From an uncultured archaeon (lineage in GTDB: Archaea > Asgardarchaeota > Thorarchaeia > Thorarchaeales > Thorarchaeaceae), in the NCBI GenBank assembly GCA_964648855.1, contig CAZYLT010000002.1:1-32000 (forward strand): a DNA stretch of 32,000 nucleotides, written 5' to 3'. Positions 6,346 through 32,000 of this stretch are shown in pieces. Under the pieces are notes generated by a model. That model ran no database searches. It had not been told where the DNA came from and saw nothing but the letters and a program-made list of their open reading frames with translations. The translations under genes and the position numbers were made by a program. Position 1 is the first letter of the stretch. Every line of letters begins with the position of its first letter.

Positions 6346-15745
<9,400 letters not shown>

Positions 15746-16704: not shown

Positions 16705-17148
16705 TTGACCGGTTCGAAAAGCCCACTTGGCGAATTTGCAGGACGCGACCTTAAGCGCAAGCGCCAGAAGTTCCGCTGGAAGAAAGCCAGCTACAAACGT
16801 CAAGTCCTCAAACTCCGAAAAAAGACCGACCCCATCGAGGGAGCTCCACAGGCGAGAGGCATAATTTTAGAGGTTGTGGGAATAGAGTCTAAACAGCCTA
16901 ATTCAGCCATTCGCAAGTGTGTAAGGATTCAGTTGTCCAAAAACGGCAAGCAGGTGACTGCTTTTATCCCAGGAGATGGCGGCCTCAAATACATTGACGA
17001 ACACGATGAGGTCATCATCGAGGGAATCGGTGGAGCCACAGGCGGGGCTATGGGTGACTTGCCCGGTGTTCGATTCAAAGTGGTGAAGGTGAACGGCGTC
17101 GGCCTTGAGTCTCTGATTTACGGTAAGGCCGAGAAGCCAATCAGATAA
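16705..17148 (+). CDS. rps12: 30S ribosomal protein S12 (uS12), full length
   Basis: [40 protein letters not shown]; TTG start. Confidence 0.98.
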
Positions 17149-17187
17149 AAGCCTCAATCTCTACACAACAGACTGGTCCTAGCAGTT

Positions 17188-17274
17188 TGTATGAGCTTAA
17201 ATTCTGCTGTCCGACTATCAGTGTATGAAACAGTTTCTTGACTGCTTGATAATAGGAGAGTCTCTCTCGCTTCA
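17188..17274 (+). repeat. 87-bp conserved element, copy 1
   Basis: Matches 30520-30606 with 3 mismatches; starts 40 nt after the rps12 stop. Confidence 0.9.
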
Positions 17275-17320
17275 CAAAAAAGGCAAAGGTATTATCCGCT
17301 TGTTTGTAAGATAACCTGGG

Positions 17321-17626
17321 ATGAGCAACATGAACGTCGAAGAATCGATTGACGGTAAGGAGTATACAACCTGGGAAGAGATCCGTGAGGCGGTCAAGCG
17401 CGTTGAACAAATGAATGCGAATGGCGAAAACGTGGTAGTTGAGCTGAGGGAGAGTAGTAGCAAGAGGACAGTCAACATTGGTCTATTCAATGAGGAGGAG
17501 CTGGAAGACTACCTGTCGTGTGTACCAAGACGTTCGATGATGTACCAGCATCCAGATTCAGAAGAACCCCTGCCAACCACTGTACGGGCAATCATCATCG
17601 ATGCAACCGATTATGACGAACTATGA
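17321..17626 (+). CDS. small acidic hypothetical protein (101 aa), island-associated family, copy 1
   Basis: Clear paralog of 23802-24107 (MSNMNVEE.IDGKEYTTWEE...SSKR...NEE.LE.YL...RRSMM...TTV.A.I). Confidence 0.85.
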   Translation: MSNMNVEESIDGKEYTTWEEIREAVKRVEQMNANGENVVVELRESSSKRTVNIGLFNEEELEDYLSCVPRRSMMYQHPDSEEPLPTTVRAIIIDATDYDEL

Positions 17627-18621
17627 CTTCTACGATATGAAACAACGCGACCTTGATTCCAGAAACCGAAGAGAAGATGTTAGGCAGCTAAGAATGGGGT
17701 AGCTGGTTTCACTTTGTGTGCTAGAGCAGAGGGTTAGCTATGGAGGATAGTACATGTACAAACTTGATTCTAAAGAACTCCTCTCAGAAGATGGCCTTTC
17801 TGTGTCACATCAGCATAGGCCTGATGATGATGAGTTATTCCAAATAACCAGCTGGCTTATTAGAAGTTTCACAGGTAGAAACTGCAACGTGTTAGGAACA
17901 CGCTTGGCTAATGGTAGGGTGTAATGTTCAAAGATGCCCCTTGTTGATCCACTCGTGCCTAGGTCAACCCGCTGTCCGCCCACTCTATGCTATTAGAAAT
18001 ATGCATTAGCAGGCTTTTGTGACCCTCATTTTAGGGAGATTTATATCGCAATATATTGAACAGGCACACACCCCGCTAACACTTGAGAAAATTATGATAT
18101 AGCTGTTCATCTGCTGTGCTAGCAGAGTGATACTAAGTCAATGTGGAAAGGAATACAATTCCTGTAGGTGCGGTCATTAAGATGGCTGAACCGGCACATG
18201 GGAGCCCAGCACTTTTGATATTAGGGTTGAAGTCTATTAAGAACGTAAGACAGCTGGCACATGAGAACCATCCACAAACAGAGAGTTCATGGGTGCTCTT
18301 CAGCCTTTTCGCTTTCATTATCTTATAAATGGGTTCTAGTAGAAGACTATGAATTGACCAACTTGGGGATACACCTAGATTATCCATTGTGGATGGACTT
18401 CAGGATGAAAATTACGATAACGAAGGCAGGATTCTGACCATACAGTCATGCATTATTGAACGAACTCTGATTCGATCTGTGGTTTCTTTCAGTACCCTGG
18501 GGCATGTAGTATACCCATCAACTCCAGAAACCCTCACATTGTACAGAAATCAGTTTTGGCTTCCTTTGTGGTGCTTAAATATCTTCTAAGTGACTAAACA
18601 TTAGGAAAAGTAGGTGGTCGT

Positions 18622-20478
18622 ATGAGAAGGAAACGAAAAACAGTTCTTATCTTCATAGCAATATTCTTGGTTACGCTCCTTCCTGTCGGAGCACTTGCGG
18701 CTCCAGATGGACAAGGGGAAGTAGAATGGATGCAGGCATCCTATCTTCATGGGATTGGTTACAAGGGAAACGGCGTGACTGTAGCCATAATTGACTCTGG
18801 TGCAATCAATCATGAGCTATTCAATTCATCTACTCTACAGGAGTACTATGAAATCTATGATGATGGAAACAATCTATCTGTGCGAGGCACAGAATACTGG
18901 TATAGCCCCTATATTAGCGACTCGTCAGGTCATGGTACTGCCATGGTGGGCGCCATAAAGAGAATGGCGCCAAGTATAACGCTGCTGATTTATGAAGCCA
19001 ATGCAGTCGGACAGTATCAAAACAGTGAAGCACACGCTAAGGCTTTCGAGCATTTAGCGGCAAATCATGAAAGTGACGGTGTTGATATTCTAAGCTACAG
19101 CTACGGCACGTTGAATCCCGAGGGACAGCCAGATGGAGTTAAGAGCTCAATTGAGAGGTCTATCAACACCTTGGTGAACGAAGGAGTTGCTATCTTCATC
19201 TCGGTAGGGAACGAAGAAACAACTGAGGTATCTTGGCCAGCAAGTCTTGCATCTAGCTACGAGGGAGTTATGAGTATAACGGCAGTCTACGATGCAGAGA
19301 GTGCTACAGATAACAACAAAGATGAAGGGGAGTGGTGGGCAAAATCACAATACGAAACGGGCAAAGTTGAGCTCGCAGCTGTAGGAGTGGATTTCTACAC
19401 ATCCAATTTCACGAGTGGTTCCGCATATTCGAGCGAAAGCGGAACAAGCATTGCAACCGCATCTGCAGCAGGATTAACAGCATGTTTGATTGAGCACTAT
19501 AAATCAGTTCCTGAGGATCAGAGAACTACCATCTCTCCATCATTTATTGAAGGTCAGCTAGAGGATAATGCCAACGATTTTCAGCAACCACCCGAGAAGG
19601 TTGGCTCAGGTACTATCAGAGCTAAATTGAGTATGGTTAATTGGTACGATCATTCAGATACCAAGACTGCAACCTATGGCACAGTGACGGGCGGTATTCC
19701 TGGAGATGGTTCTGCAACCTTTAGTGAGTCCGCTTACAACACTTACACCTCATGGAATACTGAAGGGTTCTACAATGTTCCCCCAAATGGTTGGTCAGCA
19801 GACTGGGGATGGTCCTGTCAGAGCTATGGAGGACAATCAGGTTCATGGGCGAAATTTGAATATGATCTATGGAATACTGGGGATTTGGTTTCGGATGATT
19901 ATGATACCAATCATGCCAATAAAGTCTATTTGGAATTCTATTACAAAATGGCGTCATCAGGCGGCTCCTTGAAGGTATATGCGTATGATGGTTATAATTG
20001 GGACTTGGTTATGACCTGTACAAGTAGAAACTATTGGTACAAAGCCACATGGTCGTCAACAAGCCAGCAATATCAACTGAATACATTCAAAATCAAGTAT
20101 GAAGCAACAGCCACAGGAACACAGTTTGTAGGTGTTGATACACACAGAGTGAGGACAAGATACTATTGTCAGAAGTTCAAGCATAGTTTCTCCTTCACTG
20201 GATTGGACTACAACGCCTATGACGATGCTCAGCTACAACTTAAGCTGAGCTCTCGCAGTGGAACCGAGGACCTCATCATGAAGATTGGAACCCAGACATG
20301 GACACTTCCAGTGGGTTCTGAACAAGCGGTCGACGTCGGCGACTACATCACTTCTGTCACATTCACGATAGTGATTTACGCCTCCAAAGAGTCTGCTGAC
20401 TATAGTTCGGATTCATGGACTTTGAGCTATATCCGAATCCGAGTTCTAACATCGGACTGTGATTTCTACTCTCCGTAG
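18622..20478 (+). CDS. secreted subtilisin-like serine protease (S8) with C-terminal beta-rich domains
   Basis: Signal peptide; catalytic triad motifs VTVAIIDSG, GHGTAMVG, SGTSIATA; oxyanion Asn in SVGN. Confidence 0.9.
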   Translation: MRRKRKTVLIFIAIFLVTLLPVGALAAPDGQGEVEWMQASYLHGIGYKGNGVTVAIIDSGAINHELFNSSTLQEYYEIYDDGNNLSVRGTEYWYSPYISDSSGHGTAMVGAIKRMAPSITLLIYEANAVGQYQNSEAHAKAFEHLAANHESDGVDILSYSYGTLNPEGQPDGVKSSIERSINTLVNEGVAIFISVGNEETTEVSWPASLASSYEGVMSITAVYDAESATDNNKDEGEWWAKSQYETGKVELAAVGVDFYTSNFTSGSAYSSESGTSIATASAAGLTACLIEHYKSVPEDQRTTISPSFIEGQLEDNANDFQQPPEKVGSGTIRAKLSMVNWYDHSDTKTATYGTVTGGIPGDGSATFSESAYNTYTSWNTEGFYNVPPNGWSADWGWSCQSYGGQSGSWAKFEYDLWNTGDLVSDDYDTNHANKVYLEFYYKMASSGGSLKVYAYDGYNWDLVMTCTSRNYWYKATWSSTSQQYQLNTFKIKYEATATGTQFVGVDTHRVRTRYYCQKFKHSFSFTGLDYNAYDDAQLQLKLSSRSGTEDLIMKIGTQTWTLPVGSEQAVDVGDYITSVTFTIVIYASKESADYSSDSWTLSYIRIRVLTSDCDFYSP

Positions 20479-20602
20479 CGTATTACATCGTGAATCCTGT
20501 GCTTACAAGACTCAAGCAGAAAAGAGCATTATATGCTCTTTTCTATCCATTGTATTCAATAGGATAGATGTGGATATTCCATCGTACTGAAATAATTTAC
20601 AA

Positions 20603-23329
20603 ATGGGGCCTAGCAAGAAGATGATGTCTTCAACAAGTAGCAAGCCAATGAAGTGTTTCAGCTTAGTTCTAGGTATCATTCTACTTCTATCAACCAATCT
20701 ACCTAGCTTCAATGTAGAAGATAGTACCATGTTTCCAGAGGTTTCAGGCAGAAAAGGCACAAACTCGACATTGATTCCCTTCCCTTCCGCTGACCTTGGC
20801 TTGATGTATGGACGAATCTATGAAAACAGGGGTCAAGTTTCCAATTCCGAGGTACTTTTCTATGGTCATACTTCTAGGGGATTCATTGGGTTTGGAGAGA
20901 GCAAGGTCTTGTTTGAACCGCTCAGAGATAGAGGAATCCAAAAATCCATCGAAATTCCTGGTGATATAGTGCCCAACGGGCTAGATGAGATTAACGGCCC
21001 AACGAATTTCTTCCTGGGCCATGATCGTATATTTAGAAATGTGAGAACTTTTCAATCACTGGTTTTCGAAGATAAGAATCATGGATGGGTTCTTCATTTC
21101 CGAGCCTCCAAGCATGGCGTGATTAGTCCTTCCCTATTCGAATCTAAGGAACGCACCCCTATGTTGCAAGATAGTGATGAAGTCACTGAGATGAAGCAAA
21201 TACTCGTTTCTTTGAGGTCGATGCTAATCTCTAATTCCAGTTTCTCATCAAGACACACGGAGGACATAGACCGGACCGAGCCCACAAACAATCCGCACTT
21301 CTACTCAACTTATCTTGGAGGAACCGATGATGACATAGTCAGTGATATTGTTGTAGATGCGAATGGAAGTATCTATCTGACCGGTGAAACGAAGTCCCCC
21401 GACTTCCCAACTGAAAATGCTCTCGACTCACAACAATCCACAACGGATGTATTTGTTACGAAACTAAATGCCACCGGAAATGGAATTATCTACTCAACTT
21501 TCATCGGTGGTGAAAACACTGACCGGGGGACCTGCATAGATGTTGATGATGAAGGAAATGCCTTCGTTGGAGGAGAGACCTATTCGGAGAACTTTCCCAA
21601 TTGGACTCAACCTGACATAGGTGATTTTTCCAGCAACATTTTTCTCCTGAAACTGAACAGCTCTGGAAATGGCTTAGAGTTCTCCACGGTCTTGGGTGGA
21701 GATAGCACATTTGACGATATGACTGACCTTACTGTGGGGCAAGATGGACATGTGTTTGGAGTGGGTTATACTACTGGTGGTTTTCCCCTTCTCAATGCAT
21801 CCGATGCATCAGCTGGGGGCGGCTCGGAAGGCTTTCTCTTCAAGTATAATCCAACAGATGAAGGACTGCTATTCTCTACATACATTGGGGGAGAAGGGGT
21901 GGATTACCCCTACGGTGTTTGCGTGGATTCCAGTGATAATATCTATGTCACGGGCTCTACAAGTTCAGAAGATTTTCCCATGACTGCTGTCATTGATTAT
22001 ACCACAAATGGTGCGTTGTCCTGTTTCATCACAAAGTTCAATGCCTCCGGGGGATTGATTTCGTCTGTGCTCACGGGAGGGTCCGACGACGATTTTGGAC
22101 GGGCAGTGGCAATCGATTCAAGTGGTTCCATCGTTATTTCCGGATATACAGAGTCTGAAGACTTTCCCCTAGAGAATCCATCGGATGCTCAGTTTGCAGG
22201 TAAAAGTGAAGGGTTTGTTCTGAGAATAGATGCGTCATTTGACAGTCTTGCTCTCTCTACATTTTTTGGTGGGTCTGGGACGGATGAGATACTAGATCTT
22301 GTCATAGACGCTGAGAACAACATCTATCTGACAGGATTCACCAACTCCTCGGATATTCTTGTTGTGTCTCCTTACGATGAGAGCTATAATGGCAATGTCA
22401 CAGATGCTTTTCTTTGCAAGCTGACTGCGGACGGTCAAATTGCCTTCTCGACCTATATCGGAGGCACTGGAGAGGATGTGGCCGTGGCACTGGAGCTGGG
22501 ACACAATGGCAGTGTTTTTCTTGCTGGATGGACTAATTCTGCAGATTTCCCAACAAGCGTTTCCTTGCAGGACACCTACCATATCGGAGCCGAAGATGGA
22601 TTTGTTCTCAAGATACATGACTTGACAGACGGGGATAATGACGGCATGCAGGACTGGTGGGAGGAGAAATTTGGGCTGAGTCTTGGCATCAATGATAGTC
22701 TTGACGATGCAGATGGAGATGCATTGACCAATCTGAGGGAGTTTCAGAATGGTACTGACCCAACCAAGTGCGATACTGATGAGGACGGCATGCCCGATGG
22801 CTGGGAGGTGAGTTATAGTCTGAACCCTCTCATCAATGATGCTTCCGATGATCCTGATGATGACTTCCTCACCAATGTGCTGGAGTATCAGCATGAACTG
22901 AATCCCAGAAACAATGACACAGACAGTGATTTCATCCCTGACGGGTGGGAGGTAATATACGGACTGAATCCTCTAGTAGATGATGCAGCCGGTGACTTAG
23001 ACAGTGATGGTCTATCCAATGTCGAAGAGTTTGTGCGTGGCACACTTCCAAACATATCAGACACAGACTTAGACGGTATACCGGATGGCTGGGAGGTTCA
23101 ATTTGGATTTGACCCGCTTGATGATAACATTCCTCTGCTTGAATACTTCCTCTTCTATGTTGTTAGTCCTCAAGTTCTCATAGTAGCTGTCTTAGGCGGT
23201 CTTTCGGCCCTTGCGTTTGGAATCAAGTATGAAAAACATAGGAGAAGGAGAATTACTGAAACAAAGGCTGATGAACGTGAAACTGTTATCGAAGAACTGA
23301 AGAATGACAGCACCACCTCGGAGTTCTAG
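20603..23329 (+). CDS. membrane-anchored surface protein with SBBP-type beta-propeller repeats and Ca-binding DxDxDG repeats
   Basis: Repeated YSTYLGG..DD...I.VD..G.IY.TG.T.S.DFP units, then DTDxDGxPDGWE repeats, a C-terminal TM helix and a charged tail. Confidence 0.85.
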   Translation: MGPSKKMMSSTSSKPMKCFSLVLGIILLLSTNLPSFNVEDSTMFPEVSGRKGTNSTLIPFPSADLGLMYGRIYENRGQVSNSEVLFYGHTSRGFIGFGESKVLFEPLRDRGIQKSIEIPGDIVPNGLDEINGPTNFFLGHDRIFRNVRTFQSLVFEDKNHGWVLHFRASKHGVISPSLFESKERTPMLQDSDEVTEMKQILVSLRSMLISNSSFSSRHTEDIDRTEPTNNPHFYSTYLGGTDDDIVSDIVVDANGSIYLTGETKSPDFPTENALDSQQSTTDVFVTKLNATGNGIIYSTFIGGENTDRGTCIDVDDEGNAFVGGETYSENFPNWTQPDIGDFSSNIFLLKLNSSGNGLEFSTVLGGDSTFDDMTDLTVGQDGHVFGVGYTTGGFPLLNASDASAGGGSEGFLFKYNPTDEGLLFSTYIGGEGVDYPYGVCVDSSDNIYVTGSTSSEDFPMTAVIDYTTNGALSCFITKFNASGGLISSVLTGGSDDDFGRAVAIDSSGSIVISGYTESEDFPLENPSDAQFAGKSEGFVLRIDASFDSLALSTFFGGSGTDEILDLVIDAENNIYLTGFTNSSDILVVSPYDESYNGNVTDAFLCKLTADGQIAFSTYIGGTGEDVAVALELGHNGSVFLAGWTNSADFPTSVSLQDTYHIGAEDGFVLKIHDLTDGDNDGMQDWWEEKFGLSLGINDSLDDADGDALTNLREFQNGTDPTKCDTDEDGMPDGWEVSYSLNPLINDASDDPDDDFLTNVLEYQHELNPRNNDTDSDFIPDGWEVIYGLNPLVDDAAGDLDSDGLSNVEEFVRGTLPNISDTDLDGIPDGWEVQFGFDPLDDNIPLLEYFLFYVVSPQVLIVAVLGGLSALAFGIKYEKHRRRRITETKADERETVIEELKNDSTTSEF

Positions 23330-23536
23330 ATTCTTGTGAATCGAACCTTGGATTCTATCGAGCTTCTGTCATGACACACTTGCATAATAGGAAACAAAAA
23401 CATGAGAATTTGATGCATGAGTGTAAGGATGGACGAATCAGAGAACGTAATCCGTCCCATTTAGTTGAGCTACTTGGGAGTAATTATTGTACAACATACC
23501 AATTTACCACGATATTCTTAGCACCCCCTCGAATTG

Positions 23537-23794
23537 AAACCGCCTAATTCTGCCATTCGCAAGTGTGTAAGGATTCAGTTACCGAAAAACGGCAAGCAGG
23601 TGACTGCTTTCATCCCAGGGGACGGTGGGTTGAAATATATCGACGAACACGACGAAGTCATCATTGAAGGAATCGGGGGAGCCACAGGCGGAGCCATGGG
23701 TGATCTTCCGGGCGTGCGTTTCAAAGTGGTGAAGGTGAACGGCGTCGGTCTTGACTCTCTGATCTATGGGCGGGCTGAAAAGCCAATTAGGTAG
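23537..23794 (+). pseudogene. rps12: 3' fragment of rps12 (from K-P-P-N-S-A-I-R-K to stop), copy 2
   Basis: Colinear with 16891-17148; lacks the N-terminal ~62 codons; differences mostly synonymous. Confidence 0.92.
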
Positions 23795-23801
23795 AAGAAG
23801 A

Positions 23802-24107
23802 CTAAAGGCCAAGGTAATACTCAGCACTGACTATTGTTGCCGTCACTGTAGTGGTTAGGCGCTCTTTCTCTTCAGCGTCTGCAAACATCATCGATCGTCT
23901 GCTCAAAGAATTCAAATATTTCTCCAATCCCTCCTCATTGAGAAGTGCGATGCTGAGTGCTCGCTTGGAACTCACCTCAACCAATCTAAGTATGACATCT
24001 TCTCCATTCTGACGCCTCTCCTCGACCCGCGAGAGAGCTGCTCGAACCTCTTCCCATGTTGTATACTCTTTACCATCAATCGCCTCTTCCACGTTCATGT
24101 TGCTCAC
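23802..24107 (-). CDS. small acidic hypothetical protein (101 aa), island-associated family, copy 2 (inverted)
   Basis: Paralog of 17321-17626 with the same length and homologous upstream sequence. Confidence 0.85.
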   Translation of the reverse strand: MSNMNVEEAIDGKEYTTWEEVRAALSRVEERRQNGEDVILRLVEVSSKRALSIALLNEEGLEKYLNSLSRRSMMFADAEEKERLTTTVTATIVSAEYYLGL

Positions 24108-24194
24108 CCTGTAATATCTGCAAATAAGTGAATAATCTTTTTGCCATCTCTCTTTTTTCTAGCTAAGAAATCAACCCATGCTGTTATGAACTCC
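24083..24194. repeat. 112-bp direct repeat, copy 1 (5' end and upstream region of the small ORF)
   Basis: Near-identical to 26851-26962 (CCTCTTCCA.GTTCATGTTGCTCACCCTGTAA...CTAGCTAAGAAATCAACCCATG.TGTTATGAACTCC). Confidence 0.9.
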
Positions 24195-24267
24195 CACTCT
24201 TTTCTATTAAAAATTAACAGAAAAATTTATTATATAAATAATGTATTCGATTGTGAGGGCATCTAGT

Positions 24268-24568
24268 TTGAAGCAAAATCGAATAAAACAACTAAGTCTG
24301 TGTATTCTAACGGTCCTCGTTCTTTCAACGAGTGTTCCTGGAGTGATAACCACTCTGGATGCTGTAGATATGAACGAAGCAGAGTGCCGTAATTGGTTTC
24401 GATGAGGCTATAAATGTGGCTGATGGTGTTTCCTTCACAGAAGCATTTTGGGATGCTCTTGATGATGGCGATACGGTTGCCCAAGCCTTCAGTGATGCAG
24501 ATACTGAAAAGCCGGATATTGGAGATGCAACTGTTATTCTAGGTAGTACAAGTGTCACACTGACCTAA
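24268..24568 (+). pseudogene. internally deleted secreted-protein gene: signal peptide joined out of frame to a C-terminal fragment resembling CHAT/C25 (caspase-like) peptidase ends
   Basis: TTG 24268 gives MKQNRIKQLSLCILTVLVLSTSVPGV. A different frame gives SAVIGFDEAINVADGVSFTEAFWDALDDGDTVAQAFSDA...VILGSTSVTLT-stop (24568). Confidence 0.55.
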
Positions 24569-24631
24569 GTTCAGTTTAGAACATAGAAACTTGAATAAGA
24601 AGGCGTCCATCATATCACACAAGTGGTGTAG

Positions 24632-26659
24632 GTGATGTTTGGAATATTCAAACCAAGAAACCATGTGTTAATTGTCATCGCAATCGTGATGATTATTAGC
24701 ACTTCTCCTCCTTCTTCATCCTTAGATTATCTACCAGATAACACCATCTTTGGTGAGAGAGATCACTTTTCATCATCTTATGAAATAGGTAGTCCAATTT
24801 TCCATTCATCGTCTATTGGGGGTTCTGATCGAGATAAACTTGTAGATATTTCTGTAGGAGAAGATGGATTATATTATGCTTTAGGCATGACATGGTCGGA
24901 CGATTTTCCAGGGATGGAAAGTGGGGGCTATCAGAATAATGGTGCATCTGACTGCATTATAATCAAACTATTCAAGAATGGAACTCAATCGAGTGTAGTA
25001 TCTATGGTAGGAGGTAATGATACCGATGTGCCAATTGCATTAGATATCGATAGTGATGGAAATATATTCATCACTGGATATAGTTTCTCACATGATTTTC
25101 CAATCGTAAACGCAACAGAAACAACAGTATATGGGCAAAAGGCAGATTGTTTTCTCACTGTCATATCGTCTAATGGTACAATCCTATATTCAACAGTGTT
25201 TGGAGGAATATCTTCTGACAGTCCAAATGACATCATAATACTTCCAAATAGTACAGTAGTTGTCTCTGGTACAACATCATCTCATGATTTTCCAACAATT
25301 CCGAGTGTTGCCAATAGTCATCAAGGAAGTTCTGATATCTTTATCACGGTTATTGATTGGCAGAATGACTCGATAGAACATTCTAGTCTTGTTGGTGGTT
25401 CAGGAACTGACCAATGCCGTGATTCCTTAATCGAACCTGATGGAGGTCTTCTCATATGCGGGGTTTCATCCTCATCTGACCTACCTCTTCAATCAGTAAG
25501 CATTGGTCCTAGAGGTTCCTTTGATAGTATCATTATGGATTTCAACCTTGATTTTGACCTCCAATCCACACTCACAATAGGAGGACAAGGAGATGACATT
25601 CCCTCTAAGGCTGTTCTTACTGATACAGAATTAATCATCGGAGGGTCTACAACATCTCAAGATTTCCCAATTACCCTTGATGGTATATTTCAGGAATTGA
25701 ATGGTACTTCAGATGGTTTTCTAACAAGACTTAGTCTGGAAAATTATAGTGTGATATATTCTTCCTATTTTGGTGCTGAGGGTGAAGATAGTATTGTATC
25801 CCTGTCAGTCGACTCAGCAAATGAGATATACCTCATAGGCAATACGGATTCAACATCATTCCCAACCTCAGGTTATCTTAACTCATCTCACTCAGGTCAA
25901 GAAGATATCTTCGCATCCAAAATTAGTGTGACAGGAACAATTCTATTCTCCAATCTGATAGGTGGGTCAAATATCGAAATACCAAACTGTTTGGTTCAGG
26001 ACAATAATGGTACAGTAACGATAGGTGGAATCACAACTTCGAACGATTTTCCTTCAGTTAACGGACAAAACTCTATTGGAGGATATTCTGATGGTTTCAT
26101 TTACATCCTTGGAGATTGCGGTGATTCAGATGGAGATGCTCTTCCAGATTTTATGGAGAATTTCTTAGGAACTGATAGATACCTAATAGATTCTGACAAT
26201 GACAATCTTACAGATTACGACGAGGTCCATCTCTATGATACAGATCCAACAAACCCAGACACGGACTCTGATCAGTTGCCTGACGGCTGGGAAATTCAAT
26301 ACGGATTCAACCCGAATCTAAGCGATTCCTATTTGGACCCGGATGAGGATGGACTTTCAAACCTACTCGAATACAATATTGGAACAAATCCTTTAGACTC
26401 AGACTCAGATCGGGATGGATTCCCTGATGGATGGGAATATGAACAAGGATGGAATCCCCTTGATTCCAACGTTCCATTTCTTGAATATATTGACTATTAT
26501 TCCCTATGGATTATAGGGGGTTCGCTAGTTATTATTGGAACTGTTTCAATCCTTTACCTTCGTGATAAATACATTCTGAGGAGTTTAGATATTCAAGAAG
26601 ATAACAATAAAGATGATATTTCTCATATCATGAAGGCATTAGTTGAGGAGTCTGATTGA
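24632..26659 (+). CDS. membrane-anchored SBBP-repeat surface protein with Ca-binding DxDxDG repeats (paralog of 20603-23329)
   Basis: Signal peptide, GG...D...TG.T.S.DFP repeats, DSDxDGxPDGWE repeats, shared PLD.N.P.LEY motif before the TM helix. Confidence 0.85.
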   Translation: MMFGIFKPRNHVLIVIAIVMIISTSPPSSSLDYLPDNTIFGERDHFSSSYEIGSPIFHSSSIGGSDRDKLVDISVGEDGLYYALGMTWSDDFPGMESGGYQNNGASDCIIIKLFKNGTQSSVVSMVGGNDTDVPIALDIDSDGNIFITGYSFSHDFPIVNATETTVYGQKADCFLTVISSNGTILYSTVFGGISSDSPNDIIILPNSTVVVSGTTSSHDFPTIPSVANSHQGSSDIFITVIDWQNDSIEHSSLVGGSGTDQCRDSLIEPDGGLLICGVSSSSDLPLQSVSIGPRGSFDSIIMDFNLDFDLQSTLTIGGQGDDIPSKAVLTDTELIIGGSTTSQDFPITLDGIFQELNGTSDGFLTRLSLENYSVIYSSYFGAEGEDSIVSLSVDSANEIYLIGNTDSTSFPTSGYLNSSHSGQEDIFASKISVTGTILFSNLIGGSNIEIPNCLVQDNNGTVTIGGITTSNDFPSVNGQNSIGGYSDGFIYILGDCGDSDGDALPDFMENFLGTDRYLIDSDNDNLTDYDEVHLYDTDPTNPDTDSDQLPDGWEIQYGFNPNLSDSYLDPDEDGLSNLLEYNIGTNPLDSDSDRDGFPDGWEYEQGWNPLDSNVPFLEYIDYYSLWIIGGSLVIIGTVSILYLRDKYILRSLDIQEDNNKDDISHIMKALVEESD

Positions 26660-26850
26660 TTATTCAGATTACGATATCCAATACAGCAAGCAAAGACCAC
26701 ATTCTTGAATAATTTCTGGAATATGATAGCTCTTCATTAGCTGTGCGAAATTTGATCTATTTAGCTTCACGTCCAAAGCTCACACCAGTCATTTTCAACT
26801 CCTGAAATATTACTCCTTTATCAGGAATATCAGGTAGACAACTTAATCCA

Positions 26851-26962
26851 CCTCTTCCATGTTCATGTTGCTCACCCTGTAACATTTACAGATGAGTGAA
26901 TAATCTTTTTTCCATCTCTCTTTTTTCTAGCTAAGAAATCAACCCATGTTGTTATGAACTCC
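26851..26962. repeat. 112-bp direct repeat, copy 2, with a truncated third copy of the small ORF (MSNMNMEE)
   Basis: Matches 24083-24194; on the minus strand the ORF homology stops after about 9 codons. Confidence 0.9.
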
Positions 26963-27099
26963 AATGATGTCAAGAGAGTTTTAGCCAAACGTATGGTTTC
27001 GACTTTGGCGCAATACAAGCAAGATTGCAGGCTGAATAGGGAATTGATGACTGGTAGTGAATTTGAAAAGTCAGGAGGTCTGATTTCGAACCAGCTCCT

Positions 27100-27606
27100 T
27101 CACGACCTGTCAGCTCTTTGTGTGTGTATAACCCTTAGACCAAGTAGGTAGAGAACTCCCGGGCTCATCATAACTACTCCTGGAACCCATAGTATTGGCC
27201 TAGGATATGGGGGACTAACCATCCAGTGGATTCGGATTTGTGATTCATTAGATTGAGTGATGAGAATAGTGTACAGTCCAGGAGAGGGTATTACCACCAT
27301 TCCGTCCCACTCAGTTATGTTCTCTAATCTTAAGGTGGGACTTATGGTCCGTAACGATCCCTGTTCAAAAACATTCAAAGTATCGTTGTAATCAAGGATA
27401 TACAAGGAGTAGTGCTCTCCATTGTCAGAGTTTGTCCAGAAGTAGAAACTCTCCTGAACAACGAATGACTCAATCTCCCATTCTCCATCGTCAACAAGTC
27501 TGCCATCTATGTCCCCACCAAGAAGCAGGAAAGAGAGGGCAATGAATGTGACTCCAATAAGAATAAGCGCCTTAAGGGGTCGTTCAATAGCACCTTTCAA
27601 CCTCAA
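27100..27606 (-). CDS. membrane protein (N- and C-terminal TM helices, extracellular domain) associated with an ABC-2 transporter
   Basis: Overlaps the permease stop; homologous to 30654-31145 (P.L..EN.T.....I..P..Y....T). Confidence 0.75.
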   Translation of the reverse strand: MRLKGAIERPLKALILIGVTFIALSFLLLGGDIDGRLVDDGEWEIESFVVQESFYFWTNSDNGEHYSLYILDYNDTLNVFEQGSLRTISPTLRLENITEWDGMVVIPSPGLYTILITQSNESQIRIHWMVSPPYPRPILWVPGVVMMSPGVLYLLGLRVIHTQRADRS

Positions 27607-28412
27607 ACCTCCTTTTGTTTGAACAAAACAATAATGAAGATCAGAGCAATCACGATAAGAAACGCTGCTGTCCCGAGTGAGAAGAGCACATCACTATACT
27701 GCAATGCGTCATCAAGACCCATAACAAAATCGTAGCTTGTCTGCATAGGATTAAGAATCCTTGCAAAGTCAATTTGAAAGAGAGGGTTTGTTGCCAATAG
27801 TAATAGTATATTCCAGAGAGCAATCCCGCCCACTGCTGTAACAGCACTTCGACCTGATATGACAGCGATGAGCATCACTGATGAAGTGATAAGTGCCAAG
27901 GAGGTCCAGAAGGAAACAGTTAGAAGCAGTACTGACCACCCTATTGGGAAGAATGGCACGAAGACTGCCATGGCACCAAGCGCAGCTAGGAATCCTCCTC
28001 CACCGATGACCATGATTGCCAGTAGAAATTGGGCAATCATATAGGCACCCCTTCTTATGGGATACGAAAGAAATACTCGTAATGTGCCATCCTCAAAGGC
28101 TTTTGCAGTTGTAAAGCCTATCAAGAGAGGGATTAAGGAGTAAAAGAGGATGTTTAACTGATTCAGTATGTTTCCATAGACGGTGGGTGCTATTGCGGTT
28201 CGTATATCACTCAGCCAGGCCACCCACTCCGTTCCATCCCACCCCTCACCAGGATAGAGATTGATATGCCATTGCTGAGCAAGAAGACTATTGGTTGTCC
28301 ATAGAGATAACACGAGGAAGAAGATTAGGATTGTCTCAATGATCGGAAACCAATAGGAATTTGCATATTCAAGTCGCATTGTAGCAAGCAACTCCCTGCC
28401 CTCTTCCCTCAC
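27603..28412 (-). CDS. ABC-2 type transporter permease
   Basis: Multiple TM segments; FEDGTLRVFLSYPIRR motif; overlaps the ATPase stop. Confidence 0.88.
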   Translation of the reverse strand: MREEGRELLATMRLEYANSYWFPIIETILIFFLVLSLWTTNSLLAQQWHINLYPGEGWDGTEWVAWLSDIRTAIAPTVYGNILNQLNILFYSLIPLLIGFTTAKAFEDGTLRVFLSYPIRRGAYMIAQFLLAIMVIGGGGFLAALGAMAVFVPFFPIGWSVLLLTVSFWTSLALITSSVMLIAVISGRSAVTAVGGIALWNILLLLATNPLFQIDFARILNPMQTSYDFVMGLDDALQYSDVLFSLGTAAFLIVIALIFIIVLFKQKEV

Positions 28413-29338
28413 TGCATGACCTCCCTATACGCATCCTCCAACGTGCTGGCTTGGTTAACAGCATAGATTTCGATATTCAGTCCCTTCGCCACGGCTTTAA
28501 CATCAGATTCAACCTTCTCTCTATTGCCTTGTTGAATTTCCACTGTTATTGTATTAGTGCCACTTAGCACGCAATTGTGTACGCCCCTCATATTCCGCAC
28601 CTCATTCAATAGCGAACGAGGATCAGAGGCGACTATTCGATATGAGTGTGCAGTACGTTTCCTGACGATGTCCAACATTTTACCCTTTTCAATCACCCTC
28701 CCCTCTTTAATGAAGGCCACATCATGACAGGCACGTTCAAGCTCAGAGAGAATATGCGATGAGATGAAGAATGATATTCCCCTCTGATGATTCAACTCCA
28801 TCACTAGTTTTAGAATCTCACTTCGTCCTGCTACATCCAAGTTTGAGGTTGGTTCATCGAGAAACACCAGTTCGGGATTGCCAATGAGAGCTTGGGCAAT
28901 GCCCAAACGTTGATGCATGCCAGCCGAAAGCGCCCCGATTTTTCTGTTTCCTTCTTGATCCAAGCCAACTGCTGCAAGAAGGTCCTCGGGAGCTTGGGGG
29001 TTCTTAAACAGTCTCTTGATATGATACAAGAACCCAAGAGCGGTCATATGTTTCGGGAATGATGGGTTCTCATGTAATATGCCTATTCTTCGTCGAATTT
29101 CAATGCTGTCCTCAGATACGTCCAATCCGAAAATTTCAGCAGTTCCAGAATCAGCTCTAAGGAGACCCAAAAGGATTCGTAGGAATGTCGTCTTCCCTGC
29201 TCCATTTGGACCCACGAGCCCAAAGATGCCCGGATTCACTTCAATGCTAAACCCCTCAAGAGCTAGAGTTCCATTGAATTCTTTATTCAAACTCTCGGCC
29301 ATAACTAATGGCAGTCCCATCTCTCTGAAATCTCCCAT
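28409..29338 (-). CDS. ABC transporter ATP-binding protein (exporter type)
   Basis: Walker A GPNGAGKTT, signature LSAGMHQR, Walker B VFLDEPT, H-loop SSHIL. Confidence 0.96.
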   Translation of the reverse strand: MGDFREMGLPLVMAESLNKEFNGTLALEGFSIEVNPGIFGLVGPNGAGKTTFLRILLGLLRADSGTAEIFGLDVSEDSIEIRRRIGILHENPSFPKHMTALGFLYHIKRLFKNPQAPEDLLAAVGLDQEGNRKIGALSAGMHQRLGIAQALIGNPELVFLDEPTSNLDVAGRSEILKLVMELNHQRGISFFISSHILSELERACHDVAFIKEGRVIEKGKMLDIVRKRTAHSYRIVASDPRSLLNEVRNMRGVHNCVLSGTNTITVEIQQGNREKVESDVKAVAKGLNIEIYAVNQASTLEDAYREVMQ

Positions 29339-29417
29339 TAATGTACACCATAATTGTCGTGTTTTAATTCTTTTCTCGCATAAAAGGAATAAATGGAGGT
29401 ATCACCTCCATTTTATA

Positions 29418-29936
29418 CTACTCATAATACACCCAAAGTACCGGCTCATTTCCAAAATACCATGTATGATCGCTATCAAATATTCCTCGGCCACAATCAA
29501 TAAAATGTACTTGGAATATTGAGGAAGTTGGATCACTTAAATCTTCCATCCAATCACCTTTCTGATAGTCGCAATATGCCACAAATGTCCAACTACCACT
29601 TGATCCCCACCGATATTCGATTAGCAGACTTTCATGGTACGGCCAACCAGGATTGCATCCATCGTAGTCAATGTGCAGTTTATAGGAATCACCATCTTGC
29701 GGAATGCTGGTCATCTCAAAGATGAGATCACATCCATAGGTCGTACCTATGTCGGCCTCATTAGCTCGTTCGTTATAACTATCCCACGACCCATATGTTT
29801 CTGATGGGTTGCTGTCCTGATAGCTCTCTGAATCTGACCATGCAACTACTGGCATAACAAACATACTCACTACAAGGAGAAAGGCACCCAGTACCACCAT
29901 GCGTTGTCTTATACGATTCACCCCCTTCAAAGACAT
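29418..29936 (-). CDS. secreted hypothetical protein (172 aa, Trp/Tyr/Cys-rich, probably beta-sandwich)
   Basis: Signal peptide ending VVA-W; first gene of the ABC module; TATA-like TTTATA upstream. Confidence 0.8.
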   Translation of the reverse strand: MSLKGVNRIRQRMVVLGAFLLVVSMFVMPVVAWSDSESYQDSNPSETYGSWDSYNERANEADIGTTYGCDLIFEMTSIPQDGDSYKLHIDYDGCNPGWPYHESLLIEYRWGSSGSWTFVAYCDYQKGDWMEDLSDPTSSIFQVHFIDCGRGIFDSDHTWYFGNEPVLWVYYE

Positions 29937-30234
29937 ATACCCTATTTATCGCCTATCTCTATAAATACTCCGAGGAAAAACGAACGAAAATATAAGCACA
30001 ATCAATTGGTCGATGAGAATAGGAAAACAACAAAGCTTCTACTGTGATGCATGTACTCTGGTAAACTCAACATGTTCCTGATGATATTGCAGAGGTTGCA
30101 TAATTATCTGGCACACCTGTTTCTATAAGAAAACCCTCATTCACAGGAGCTACCCACTCAGCCTGCGGTTGACATGTTGACCCTTTTTATGCCCGTCCTA
30201 ATGGACAAACTGCCGGTTTCATTAAGAATGCGGT

Positions 30235-30480
30235 TCCTCTATCTGCACATGCGTCAGAATCCAGCTATCCAAAAACGGCAAGCAGGTGACCGCTTTTATC
30301 CCAGGCGACGGCGGCCTCAAGTATATTGACGAACACGACGAGGTCATCATCGAGGGAATCGGTGGAGCCACAGGCGGAGCAATGGGTGATCTGCCGGGTG
30401 TCCGGTTCAAAGTGGTGAAGGTAAACGGTGTGGGCTTAGACTCGCTCATCTACGGACGGGCTGAAAAGCCAATCAGGTAG
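30235..30480 (+). pseudogene. rps12: 3' fragment of rps12, copy 3 (degenerate SSICT, then [11 protein letters not shown] to stop)
   Basis: Colinear with the 3' part of 16705-17148; no start codon or N-terminus. Confidence 0.92.
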
Positions 30481-30519
30481 CCTGGTTATCAATTCAAGTA
30501 TTTCATGGCCAGAACAATA

Positions 30520-30606
30520 TGTATGAGCATAAATTCTGTTGTCCGACTATCAGTGTATGAAAAAGTTTCTTGACTGCTTGATAATAGGAGAGTCTCTCTC
30601 GCTTCA
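30520..30606 (+). repeat. 87-bp conserved element, copy 2
   Basis: Matches 17188-17274; again 40 nt after an rps12 stop. Confidence 0.9.
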
Positions 30607-30653: not shown

Positions 30654-31145
30654 TTAACGAGATGTGATGCGTTCTATGATTTTGTGCCCATGGAGTATCA
30701 AGCCTAGAAGCGATAGAATACCCCCTGCTATAGTTAAACGGGTATTGAAACCAGTCTTGTCTATTACAATATCCAGCTCGAGATAGTCATCGGTCTTGGC
30801 TGTAAAAACAAATGCATAGATATCGGGGGCAGAAATGTCTATCACCTCATTGAAGGATGTCAAATTCTCCTGGACAAGAATCGGTTCAATGATGGAGAGG
30901 GACTGGTTCTGCCCCACCGTCTTGTTTGCATCTTCGCCGTAAACAAAGTACAGTGTAAAGCTACCATTTCCGCGCCCGATCTCAAGCTTCACATGAATAT
31001 CCCTATCTGTTGCAAAAATGACTCCGGCCGGGTTTCCCTCTTCCACATGCAGAGTTCTGCTCTCTATGTTCCTTCCGGCAACAATAGATGACAAAAGCGC
31101 AACCAGTCCAATGGTGAGGAGTATTTTTCCAAGTCTTGTGGACAC
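30654..31145 (-). CDS. membrane protein associated with an ABC-2 transporter (likely start GTG 31145), paralog of 27100-27606
   Basis: Two terminal TM helices; SD GAGGTG upstream; shared extracellular motif with the paralog. Confidence 0.75.
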   Translation of the reverse strand: MSTRLGKILLTIGLVALLSSIVAGRNIESRTLHVEEGNPAGVIFATDRDIHVKLEIGRGNGSFTLYFVYGEDANKTVGQNQSLSIIEPILVQENLTSFNEVIDISAPDIYAFVFTAKTDDYLELDIVIDKTGFNTRLTIAGGILSLLGLILHGHKIIERITSR

Positions 31146-31149
31146 CCTT

Positions 31150-31929
31150 TCACACCTCCGCTCTTTTGAAGAGATACAGGCTTGCAATGAACAGAGATAT
31201 TGAGAACCCTAATGCTGTAACCAGCCCCAGAAATACATCTCCTGAAGATGCTGCGCCAGGCAGATCCCGGAGGTGTTCTGTCGCCGCCCGTAGTGGATTC
31301 ATAACTGAGAGTAATAGCGGTGACACATCTGGGCTCCCGAGAAAGAGATTCACTATCAACCAAAAACCGATGCCAAAGAGAGATGCAATCGAGAGGCGTT
31401 TGAAGAAGACAGCTATTACTGCACATACTGCCGCCTGAAGTGCAACCGTCACCCACAGGGAAACAAGTGTAAGACTCAACTCGTAAACAGAAGGAAATCC
31501 GGGATATACGGAAACCACGGCAAACAGAAATGCACCTGAGAGCGTCCCAGCTGGTATTAGAATCGCAAACAAAGTTTTGTTCAATAATACTGACGTTCGT
31601 CTGATAGGATAGGTGATTAATGACCTCATGTATCCGTCTTCGAAGGGTTTTGCAATGGAGAGAGCAGCTAGTAAGGGCACTAAGATTGCCAGCCATGATG
31701 AAAAGACTCCCACCCCATAGAAGATTCTACTAGGAATCAATCCATCCAAGATGATGTTGATTCTGTCAATTTGTCCAACCCCAAATGGCATTGCGGTCCA
31801 ACCACCCGTTGTGTTCCAAACGATTACAAAGAAGAAGATGGCAACAAGTCCCTCAAGCATGGGAAACCGATAGGTGATATTGAGTTCAATGCGTGCCAGA
31901 CGAATGACGTTACTCAGTCTGTTCTTCAT
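31150..31929 (-). CDS. ABC-2 type transporter permease (paralog of 27603-28412)
   Basis: FEDGYMRSLITYPIRR motif; multiple TM segments. Confidence 0.88.
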   Translation of the reverse strand: MKNRLSNVIRLARIELNITYRFPMLEGLVAIFFFVIVWNTTGGWTAMPFGVGQIDRINIILDGLIPSRIFYGVGVFSSWLAILVPLLAALSIAKPFEDGYMRSLITYPIRRTSVLLNKTLFAILIPAGTLSGAFLFAVVSVYPGFPSVYELSLTLVSLWVTVALQAAVCAVIAVFFKRLSIASLFGIGFWLIVNLFLGSPDVSPLLLSVMNPLRAATEHLRDLPGAASSGDVFLGLVTALGFSISLFIASLYLFKRAEV

Positions 31930-32000
31930 GTGATCACATCCCAGAAGGCGTCCTCCAGAGTTGCAGCCCGCTCCATGCTGTATAATTCTACGCTCAACGA
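31926..32000 (-). CDS. C-terminal end of an ABC transporter ATP-binding protein (partial, extends beyond window)
   Basis: Reads SLSVELYSMERAATLEDAFWDVIT-stop, matching IEIYAVNQASTLEDAYREVMQ of 28409-29338; ATGA overlap with the permease. Confidence 0.8.
   Translation of the reverse strand, partial: SLSVELYSMERAATLEDAFWDVIT

Follow-up and report, generated by a model that had tools for sequence, protein, structure and literature searches.

How does rps12, an essential gene, come to be followed by several copies of its own 3' half, each placed behind unrelated genes? The question arises from the first 32 kb (the window) of contig C2 of a Thorarchaeota metagenome-assembled genome (MAG; here G000; 3.1 Mb, 94.6% complete), which carries the archaeal rpoB-rpoA'-rpoA''-L30e-nusA-rps12 operon. 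From rps12 onwards, the contig order is rps12, cargo 1, 3' copy, cargo 2, 3' copy, cargo 3, 3' copy, two genes, decayed 3' remnant, and rps7; behind every cargo block comes a displaced 3' end of rps12. The answer to which we incline, with a little more confidence than doubt, is that this is an additive island, variable between strains, whose growth and shrinkage both run on homologous recombination through the 3' half of rps12, with the tail of the gene itself seemingly serving as the landing pad.

Displaced 3' halves of rps12

Whole-gene paralogs or a tandem duplication were ruled out, as the copies are 3' halves only and the spacers are unrelated genes. Between codon 80 and the stop, identity among the copies is 83 to 86%, with 22 to 30 silent and 0 to 3 missense codon differences per pair. 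A preliminary description of the window had reported the full gene, two 3' copies (fragments 1 and 2; Table 1), and their silent divergence, all of which held. So did the LES/LDS, YGK/YGR, Q64P, and S78P differences and the likeness of the full gene and fragment 1 at the 5' boundary (nucleotides [nt] 193 to 230, one mismatch). It also had both fragments start at the KQPNSAIRK motif, which is true of fragment 1; in fragment 2, the motif is lost (a stop and missense changes at codons 63 to 66 and 68 to 71), clean homology starts at codon 72, and one common sharp boundary is not supported. Likewise, the 20-nt block AAAAACGGCAAGCAGGTGAC, described as invariant, is present at 16939, 23585, 30271, and contig position 34849 and nowhere else in the genome; as a special attachment (att) core it did not stand, its run of 6 invariant codons among 69 being within chance by shuffling (p = 0.084).

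The copies point to displacement. From codon 80 on, fragment 1 is 95% identical (9 silent and 0 missense differences) to the working gene of a congener in the same Thorarchaeota genus (G001). The resident full gene, whose 3' half is an allele other than the congener's, is only 84.5% identical to that same working 3' half; therefore, the working tail was replaced and the older tail displaced. The fragments were working alleles until recently. Missense changes are skewed toward their 5' tips, affecting 2/3 differing codons upstream of codon 80 versus 0/9 after it in fragment 1 (p = 0.045) and 4/11 versus 0/29 in fragment 2 (p = 0.004). Codons 72 to 78 of fragment 2 are an older, silently diverged version, and its reading frame is intact after codon 79.

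A last rps12 3' fragment next to rps7, predicted from the window before this part of the contig was seen, was recovered as the decayed remnant, which abuts the rps7 start. It is common to G000, G001, and one JGI genome and is therefore the oldest event; it was probably kept because it carries the rps7 start region.

Among 400 phylum genomes (375 with a match), only G000 has four matches to the rps12 3' half. Two genomes with double matches were set aside as different patterns: G041 carries two full genes, each on its own contig, and in G379 one gene is split. rps7 directly follows rps12 in approximately 72 of the 76 other family genomes where both could be placed. The exceptions are G001; G075, with a methyltransferase and a glycosyltransferase after rps12, then codons ~125 to 147 (75% identity) abutting rps7; G002, with a TPR gene and a 29-nt remnant in between; and G054, with one gene and no remnant. 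The rps12-rps7 junction is therefore a recurrent insertion place, with boundaries that differ between genera, and two other genera hold independent, shorter cases of the pattern. An island end of 75 nt, containing a TATA-like box and an ATG, is common to G075 and G054 (loci L071 1 to 260, L072 1 to 90, and L073 1700 to 1830), and the G075 remnant can be read as a 28-codon leader open reading frame (ORF) ending at the rps7 start. A genome-wide screen (2,882 ORFs of G000) found few partial gene duplicates elsewhere, so the pattern is concentrated in the rps12 operon. Two further displaced 3' gene pieces lie on contig C1 (412118 to 423033), in nested order ~7 to 10 kb downstream of their full genes, identified by reading of the sequence as an amidinotransferase-like and a TauE-like gene.

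Strain variation and transfer of cargo

Empty-site alleles and strain-variable cargo, both proposed earlier as checks, were found; related strains have the cargo blocks, lack them, or show deletions of them, and blocks have crossed a species boundary. A JGI contig (655 kb) reads rps12-o101-143aa-rps7, the state without cargos 1 to 3 (o101 is an orphan gene described below). The G001 locus holds one full rps12, o101, cargo 2, the remnant, and rps7, and an ENA contig (95% backbone identity) has full rps12 with cargo 2 (97%) right after it, ending exactly at the fragment 2 start. Public runs, in which joints at 85% likeness can stem from related organisms, gave the empty site (17148 to 35087) and, in two studies, the G001 form (29348 to 36112). 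A later sample of the source study gave two deletion variants (23784 to 35087 and 26869 to 35554), and deletion joints fall at fragment repeats and o101 repeats. Another JGI contig (L065, 1 to 10459), probably a further island variant, begins with the o101 upstream region and o101 in the cargo 1 orientation, followed by different cargo (subtilase, nucleotidyltransferase, and a transposase piece).

Between G000 and G001, the 675-aa cargo 2 gene differs at 2/676 silent codons versus 256/886 in rpoA', and a recent cross-species transfer of the gene is therefore indicated. Divergence of cargo 2 from G001 rises stepwise along its length (2/676, 2/169, 11/270, and 19/310 silent codons); such a gradient is unlike a single insertion of one block. 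Cargo 2 has three different left joints and moves without o101. In one run, a contig runs back from 26910 to 24380 around the 675-aa gene, possibly a circle or tandem copy of this surface-protein module; contigs drop rare forms.

3' copies at EF-1alpha

A similar arrangement lies nearby at EF-1alpha (C2 40767 to 42083), with 3' copies at 44563 to 44660 and 45161 to 45571 and an o101 paralog beside them. Among 86 family genomes, these copies are confined to this genus; the cargo differs between G000 and G001, and the fragment boundary is codon 305 in G000, G001, and the JGI genome. A palindrome (AGATAA-N7-TTATCT) precedes the fragment and may be the promoter of the o101 paralog or a binding site. 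A AACGGNAAG motif shared by the rps12 and EF-1alpha boundaries was dropped, as its position varies among EF-1alpha alleles.

How the island may grow and shrink

The founding insertion, as we infer it, would have crossed over in rps12 at one end and joined inside the gene without long homology at the other; rps12 would have been restored with a donor tail and the resident tail shoved downstream. Thereafter, a donor with the gene-cargo-fragment order would let RadA add the cargo to any recipient without an integrase, by one crossover in or before rps12 and a second between the donor fragment and the recipient's working gene, or alternatively by a single crossover with a circle formed when gene and fragment loop out the DNA between them. 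Crossovers would fall in identical blocks of 26 to 41 nt, and because of this the 5' tip of a fragment would seldom be refreshed and would decay. Recombination of this kind between fragments, or between o101 modules, would also take cargo out.

The first suggestion for the window, serial insertion with 3' replacement, is supported. It left mobilization in trans or by homologous recombination open, and the evidence leans to the latter. As reported earlier, the cargo holds no recombinase, and the one thought possible further along the contig was found neither there nor in the genome: a genome-wide profile search of G000 gave no match to PF00589, PF07508, PF00239, or PF01548 (tyrosine, serine, and IS110 recombinases), and G001 has no PF00589 match. 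RadA is present in G000. The rps12 alleles and fragments are mosaics that change ancestry near nt 261 to 270, 363 to 396, and 420 to 435 (2/109 triplets pass Bonferroni correction), and identical blocks of 26 to 41 nt lie at several places in the copies. The sequences before the three fragments (the cargo right ends) have no common motif or arm; immediately before fragment 3, and joined to it, are 45 nt from inside an ABC ATPase gene. In a wider survey, G000 and 57/86 family genomes, one single-contig genome included, gave no tyrosine recombinase match, even of Xer type.

Several points weigh against growth by homologous recombination. The change from decayed to fresh sequence comes at codon 78/79 in each of the three fragments, and codon 305 is where the EF-1alpha fragment begins in three genomes, both as a fixed crossover site would give; a boundary that has once been founded is also passed on by homologous recombination, and shared boundaries therefore need no integrase. 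The copies are just ~85% identical, which is low for recombination, and the founding step is inferred. No DprA match was found that would point to an uptake route, and tyrosine recombinases do occur in 29/86 family genomes, with the G000 MAG itself incomplete.

The same boundaries favor a second reading, which we regard as possible but doubtful, that the cargo blocks are relics of site-specific integrative elements resembling cis-mobilizable elements (CIMEs). An integrase, in trans or since lost, would act at the codon 78 to 85 block; a long replacement 3' end would be carried along, and homologous recombination would only remodel the array later. To the common switch and the fixed EF-1alpha boundary with its adjoining palindrome can be added that the block is invariant in all seven alleles, that genus-restricted o101 marks both the rps12 and EF-1alpha islands, that a third of family genomes have integrases, and that tandem CIMEs at ribosomal protein genes are documented (PMC7563491). 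However, neither G000 nor its congener yielded a recombinase, the block is no longer than chance allows, and there is no shared arm sequence, with fragment 3 adjoining a broken ABC gene. Other genera have other boundaries (codon ~125), and no carrier was found among viral contigs.

We think it quite improbable that coexisting strain variants were joined at shared repeats during assembly, making part of the array a chimera. In the later sample of the same study, depth is uneven over the array (24 to 29 versus 6 to 10) and no single contig spans it; yet ~15% of sites differ between the copies, that sample has contigs running from cargo 1 into fragment 1 and from cargo 2 into fragment 2, and the rps7 remnant and EF-1alpha fragment are present in independent genomes. 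Least credible is nuclease-driven homing, in which a nuclease would cut rps12 alleles lacking the donor's silent changes and repair would copy the donor tail and cargo: the tail is silently recoded, and the neighboring rpoA'' insertion has a homing-like anatomy and a conserved 1,418-aa orphan protein, but the rps12 cargo holds no nuclease-like gene, o101 has no clear fold match and cargo 2 moves without it, and the 1,418-aa family is seen only at rpoA''.

Returning to homologous recombination, a more ambitious version, offered tentatively and in our judgment unlikely to hold in full, is an integrase-free, self-propagating cassette system in the core transcription-translation operon of this genus. 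The half-gene tails of rps12 and EF-1alpha would be portable homology arms by which surface-protein cargo is added, swapped, and deleted between species, with orphan o101 as a dedicated helper. If growth by homologous recombination is true, genes can be added without any mobile-element enzyme, and half of an essential gene, once displaced, suffices as a landing pad that can be used again; in this lineage, most genomes (57/86) gave no match to a tyrosine recombinase. It would explain how surface-protein blocks cross a 10 to 13% species gap almost unchanged in Asgard archaea. rps12 and EF-1alpha would be mosaic, which matters because both serve as phylogenetic markers.

Cargo, o101, and the rpoA'' element

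Feature coordinates are given in Table 1. The secreted and surface nature of the cargo, noted earlier, was borne out, and ABC transporter genes are added to it: overall, the cargo consists of a subtilase, small secreted proteins, two beta-propeller proteins of the SBBP/TSP3 kind that have hydrophobic segments at their ends, and a pair of paralogous ABC-2 operons. Its GC content is 42 to 45% versus 47.5% for the rpo genes.

Table 1. Features of the rps12 island in the window and, where marked C2, further along the contig
Feature	Position	Strand	Remarks
Full rps12 (uS12/S23), 147 aa	16705..17148	+	Pfam PF00164
20-nt block AAAAACGGCAAGCAGGTGAC, codons 79-85	16939..16958	+	Identical in all copies; decayed/fresh boundary in fragments
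o101 upstream region	17174..17274		Repeated at 30506-30606 (91%)
o101, 101 aa	17321..17626	+	No known family or fold
Cargo 1: secreted subtilase (S8), 618 aa	18622..20478	+	
Cargo 1: SBBP/TSP3 beta-propeller surface protein, 908 aa	20603..23329	+	N- and C-terminal hydrophobic segments
rps12 3' fragment 1, codons 63-147	23537..23794	+	85% to full gene over 261 nt
o101 paralog	23802..24107	-	57% aa
Cargo 2 block	24380..29372		Common to G001 (98-99% nt) and three other assemblies
Cargo 2: SBBP/TSP3 surface protein, 675 aa	24632..26659	+	
Stub of o101 upstream region and first 9 codons	26851..26962	-	93% to 24083-24194; deletion-variant endpoint
Cargo 2: secreted 172-aa protein, ABC ATPase, ABC-2-like permease, 168-aa membrane protein	27100..29936	-	
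rps12 3' fragment 2, codons ~67-147	~30235..30480	+	80% over same 261-nt frame
o101 upstream region copy	30506..30606		Without gene
Cargo 3 start: paralogous ABC operon	30654..32000	-	On to contig position 34182
rps12 3' fragment 3	C2 34847-35046		12-nt deletion, three missense codons
Decayed remnant of last rps12 codons	C2 ~36200-36274		Abuts rps7 start (36275)

The o101 gene or its upstream region follows every long rps12 end, and o101 is restricted to the genus. Paralogs stand after fragments 1 and 3 as well as beside the EF-1alpha fragment; after fragment 3, the order is o101 paralog, 143-aa gene, decayed remnant, and rps7. At 17186 to 17616, o101 and its upstream region lie the other way round from those in G001 and from the other copies. 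Candidate roles for o101 as a recombinase or nuclease were rejected, as no fold match exceeded Z 4.5. The weak relatives that another genus has lie mostly beside TFB genes, without duplication. Metagenome and viral scans returned nothing for o101 or the core pattern, which is not evidence of absence, and a sigma-70 promoter/terminator scan, a model ill-suited to archaea, was at chance level. Before fragment 3 (C2 34630 to 34846) lies a piece like decayed repeats on contigs C11 and C21 (possibly insertion sequence remnants), then the 45 nt of the ABC ATPase gene.

The element at rpoA'' (window 9018 to 14840) is separate. A native 5' piece is stranded (9018 to 9284), followed by the 1,418-aa orphan ORF (10050 to 14306) and a new 5' copy (14534 to 14797). 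rpoA'' carries a 30-nt hairpin insert, removal of which restores R-T-F-H. Each of the four homologs of the 1,418-aa ORF lies before a split rpoA'' that has this 30-nt insert, its stem co-varying and its loop ACATTTCGT invariant; the insert is absent from seven intact relatives. It is a candidate mRNA intron of the bulge-helix-bulge type and may protect the restored gene. The 1,418-aa protein had no fold or atlas match, and its predicted model was poor (pLDDT 45).

Comparison with known systems

The E. coli prophages e14 and phage 21, which have their own integrases, insert in icd. They resemble the rps12 island in the long, silently diverged 3' replacement of a protein gene and in the displaced 3' piece left behind; they differ in their own integrase, single insertion, and absence of an array of host-type cargo. 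An integron cassette array differs in that no integron integrase (tyrosine recombinase) was found in G000.

Tandem accretion at a ribosomal protein gene is an anatomy already known from bacteria. In Streptococcus, integrative and conjugative elements (ICEs), integrative mobilizable elements (IMEs), and CIMEs accrete in tandem at the 3' ends of rpsI, rpmG, rplL, and fda (PMC7563491). Alike are the stacking of several cargo elements at such a 3' end, the strain-variable cargo, and tandem members that are each closed by a target copy and lack recombination genes of their own, both of which hold for the rps12 array. Streptococcus CIMEs, however, keep att sites and adjoin an integrase-bearing element (PMC7563491), whereas the rps12 repeats are 200 to 260 nt long (half a gene), ~85% identical, and mosaic, with no recombinase found in the genome. 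No integrase-bearing ICE or IME was seen at rps12 in G000, G001, or the other rps12 loci, a sample of few strains and an incomplete MAG.

In the tycheposon islands of Prochlorococcus (bioRxiv 10.1101/2020.12.28.424599), new elements likewise push older ones away from an intact target, with partial target copies between and the oldest material distal. Tycheposons use tRNA targets, att sites of ~40 nt, and an element-borne tyrosine recombinase; here the target is rps12 and no tyrosine recombinase was found. The rps12 array works like tandem CIME accretion and tycheposon islands; it is not assigned to either because the integrase feature fails and evidence for a fixed att site is mixed (a common switch at codon 78/79, but also other switch points, no shared arms, and a block at p = 0.084).

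Integrated elements of Asgard archaea (PMC11529989) also place strain-variable DNA in Asgard chromosomes, and are described there with tyrosine integrases and 11-bp att motifs. That text nowhere uses the terms "ribosomal protein," "elongation factor," or "homologous recombination." The rps12 array also resembles the flexible genomic islands of Alteromonas, where cassettes are gained and lost at the same site and near-identical cassettes occur in distant lineages. There, additive islands are ascribed to site-directed recombination and replacement islands to double crossover (PMC5217437); the rps12 island is additive yet looks driven by homologous recombination.

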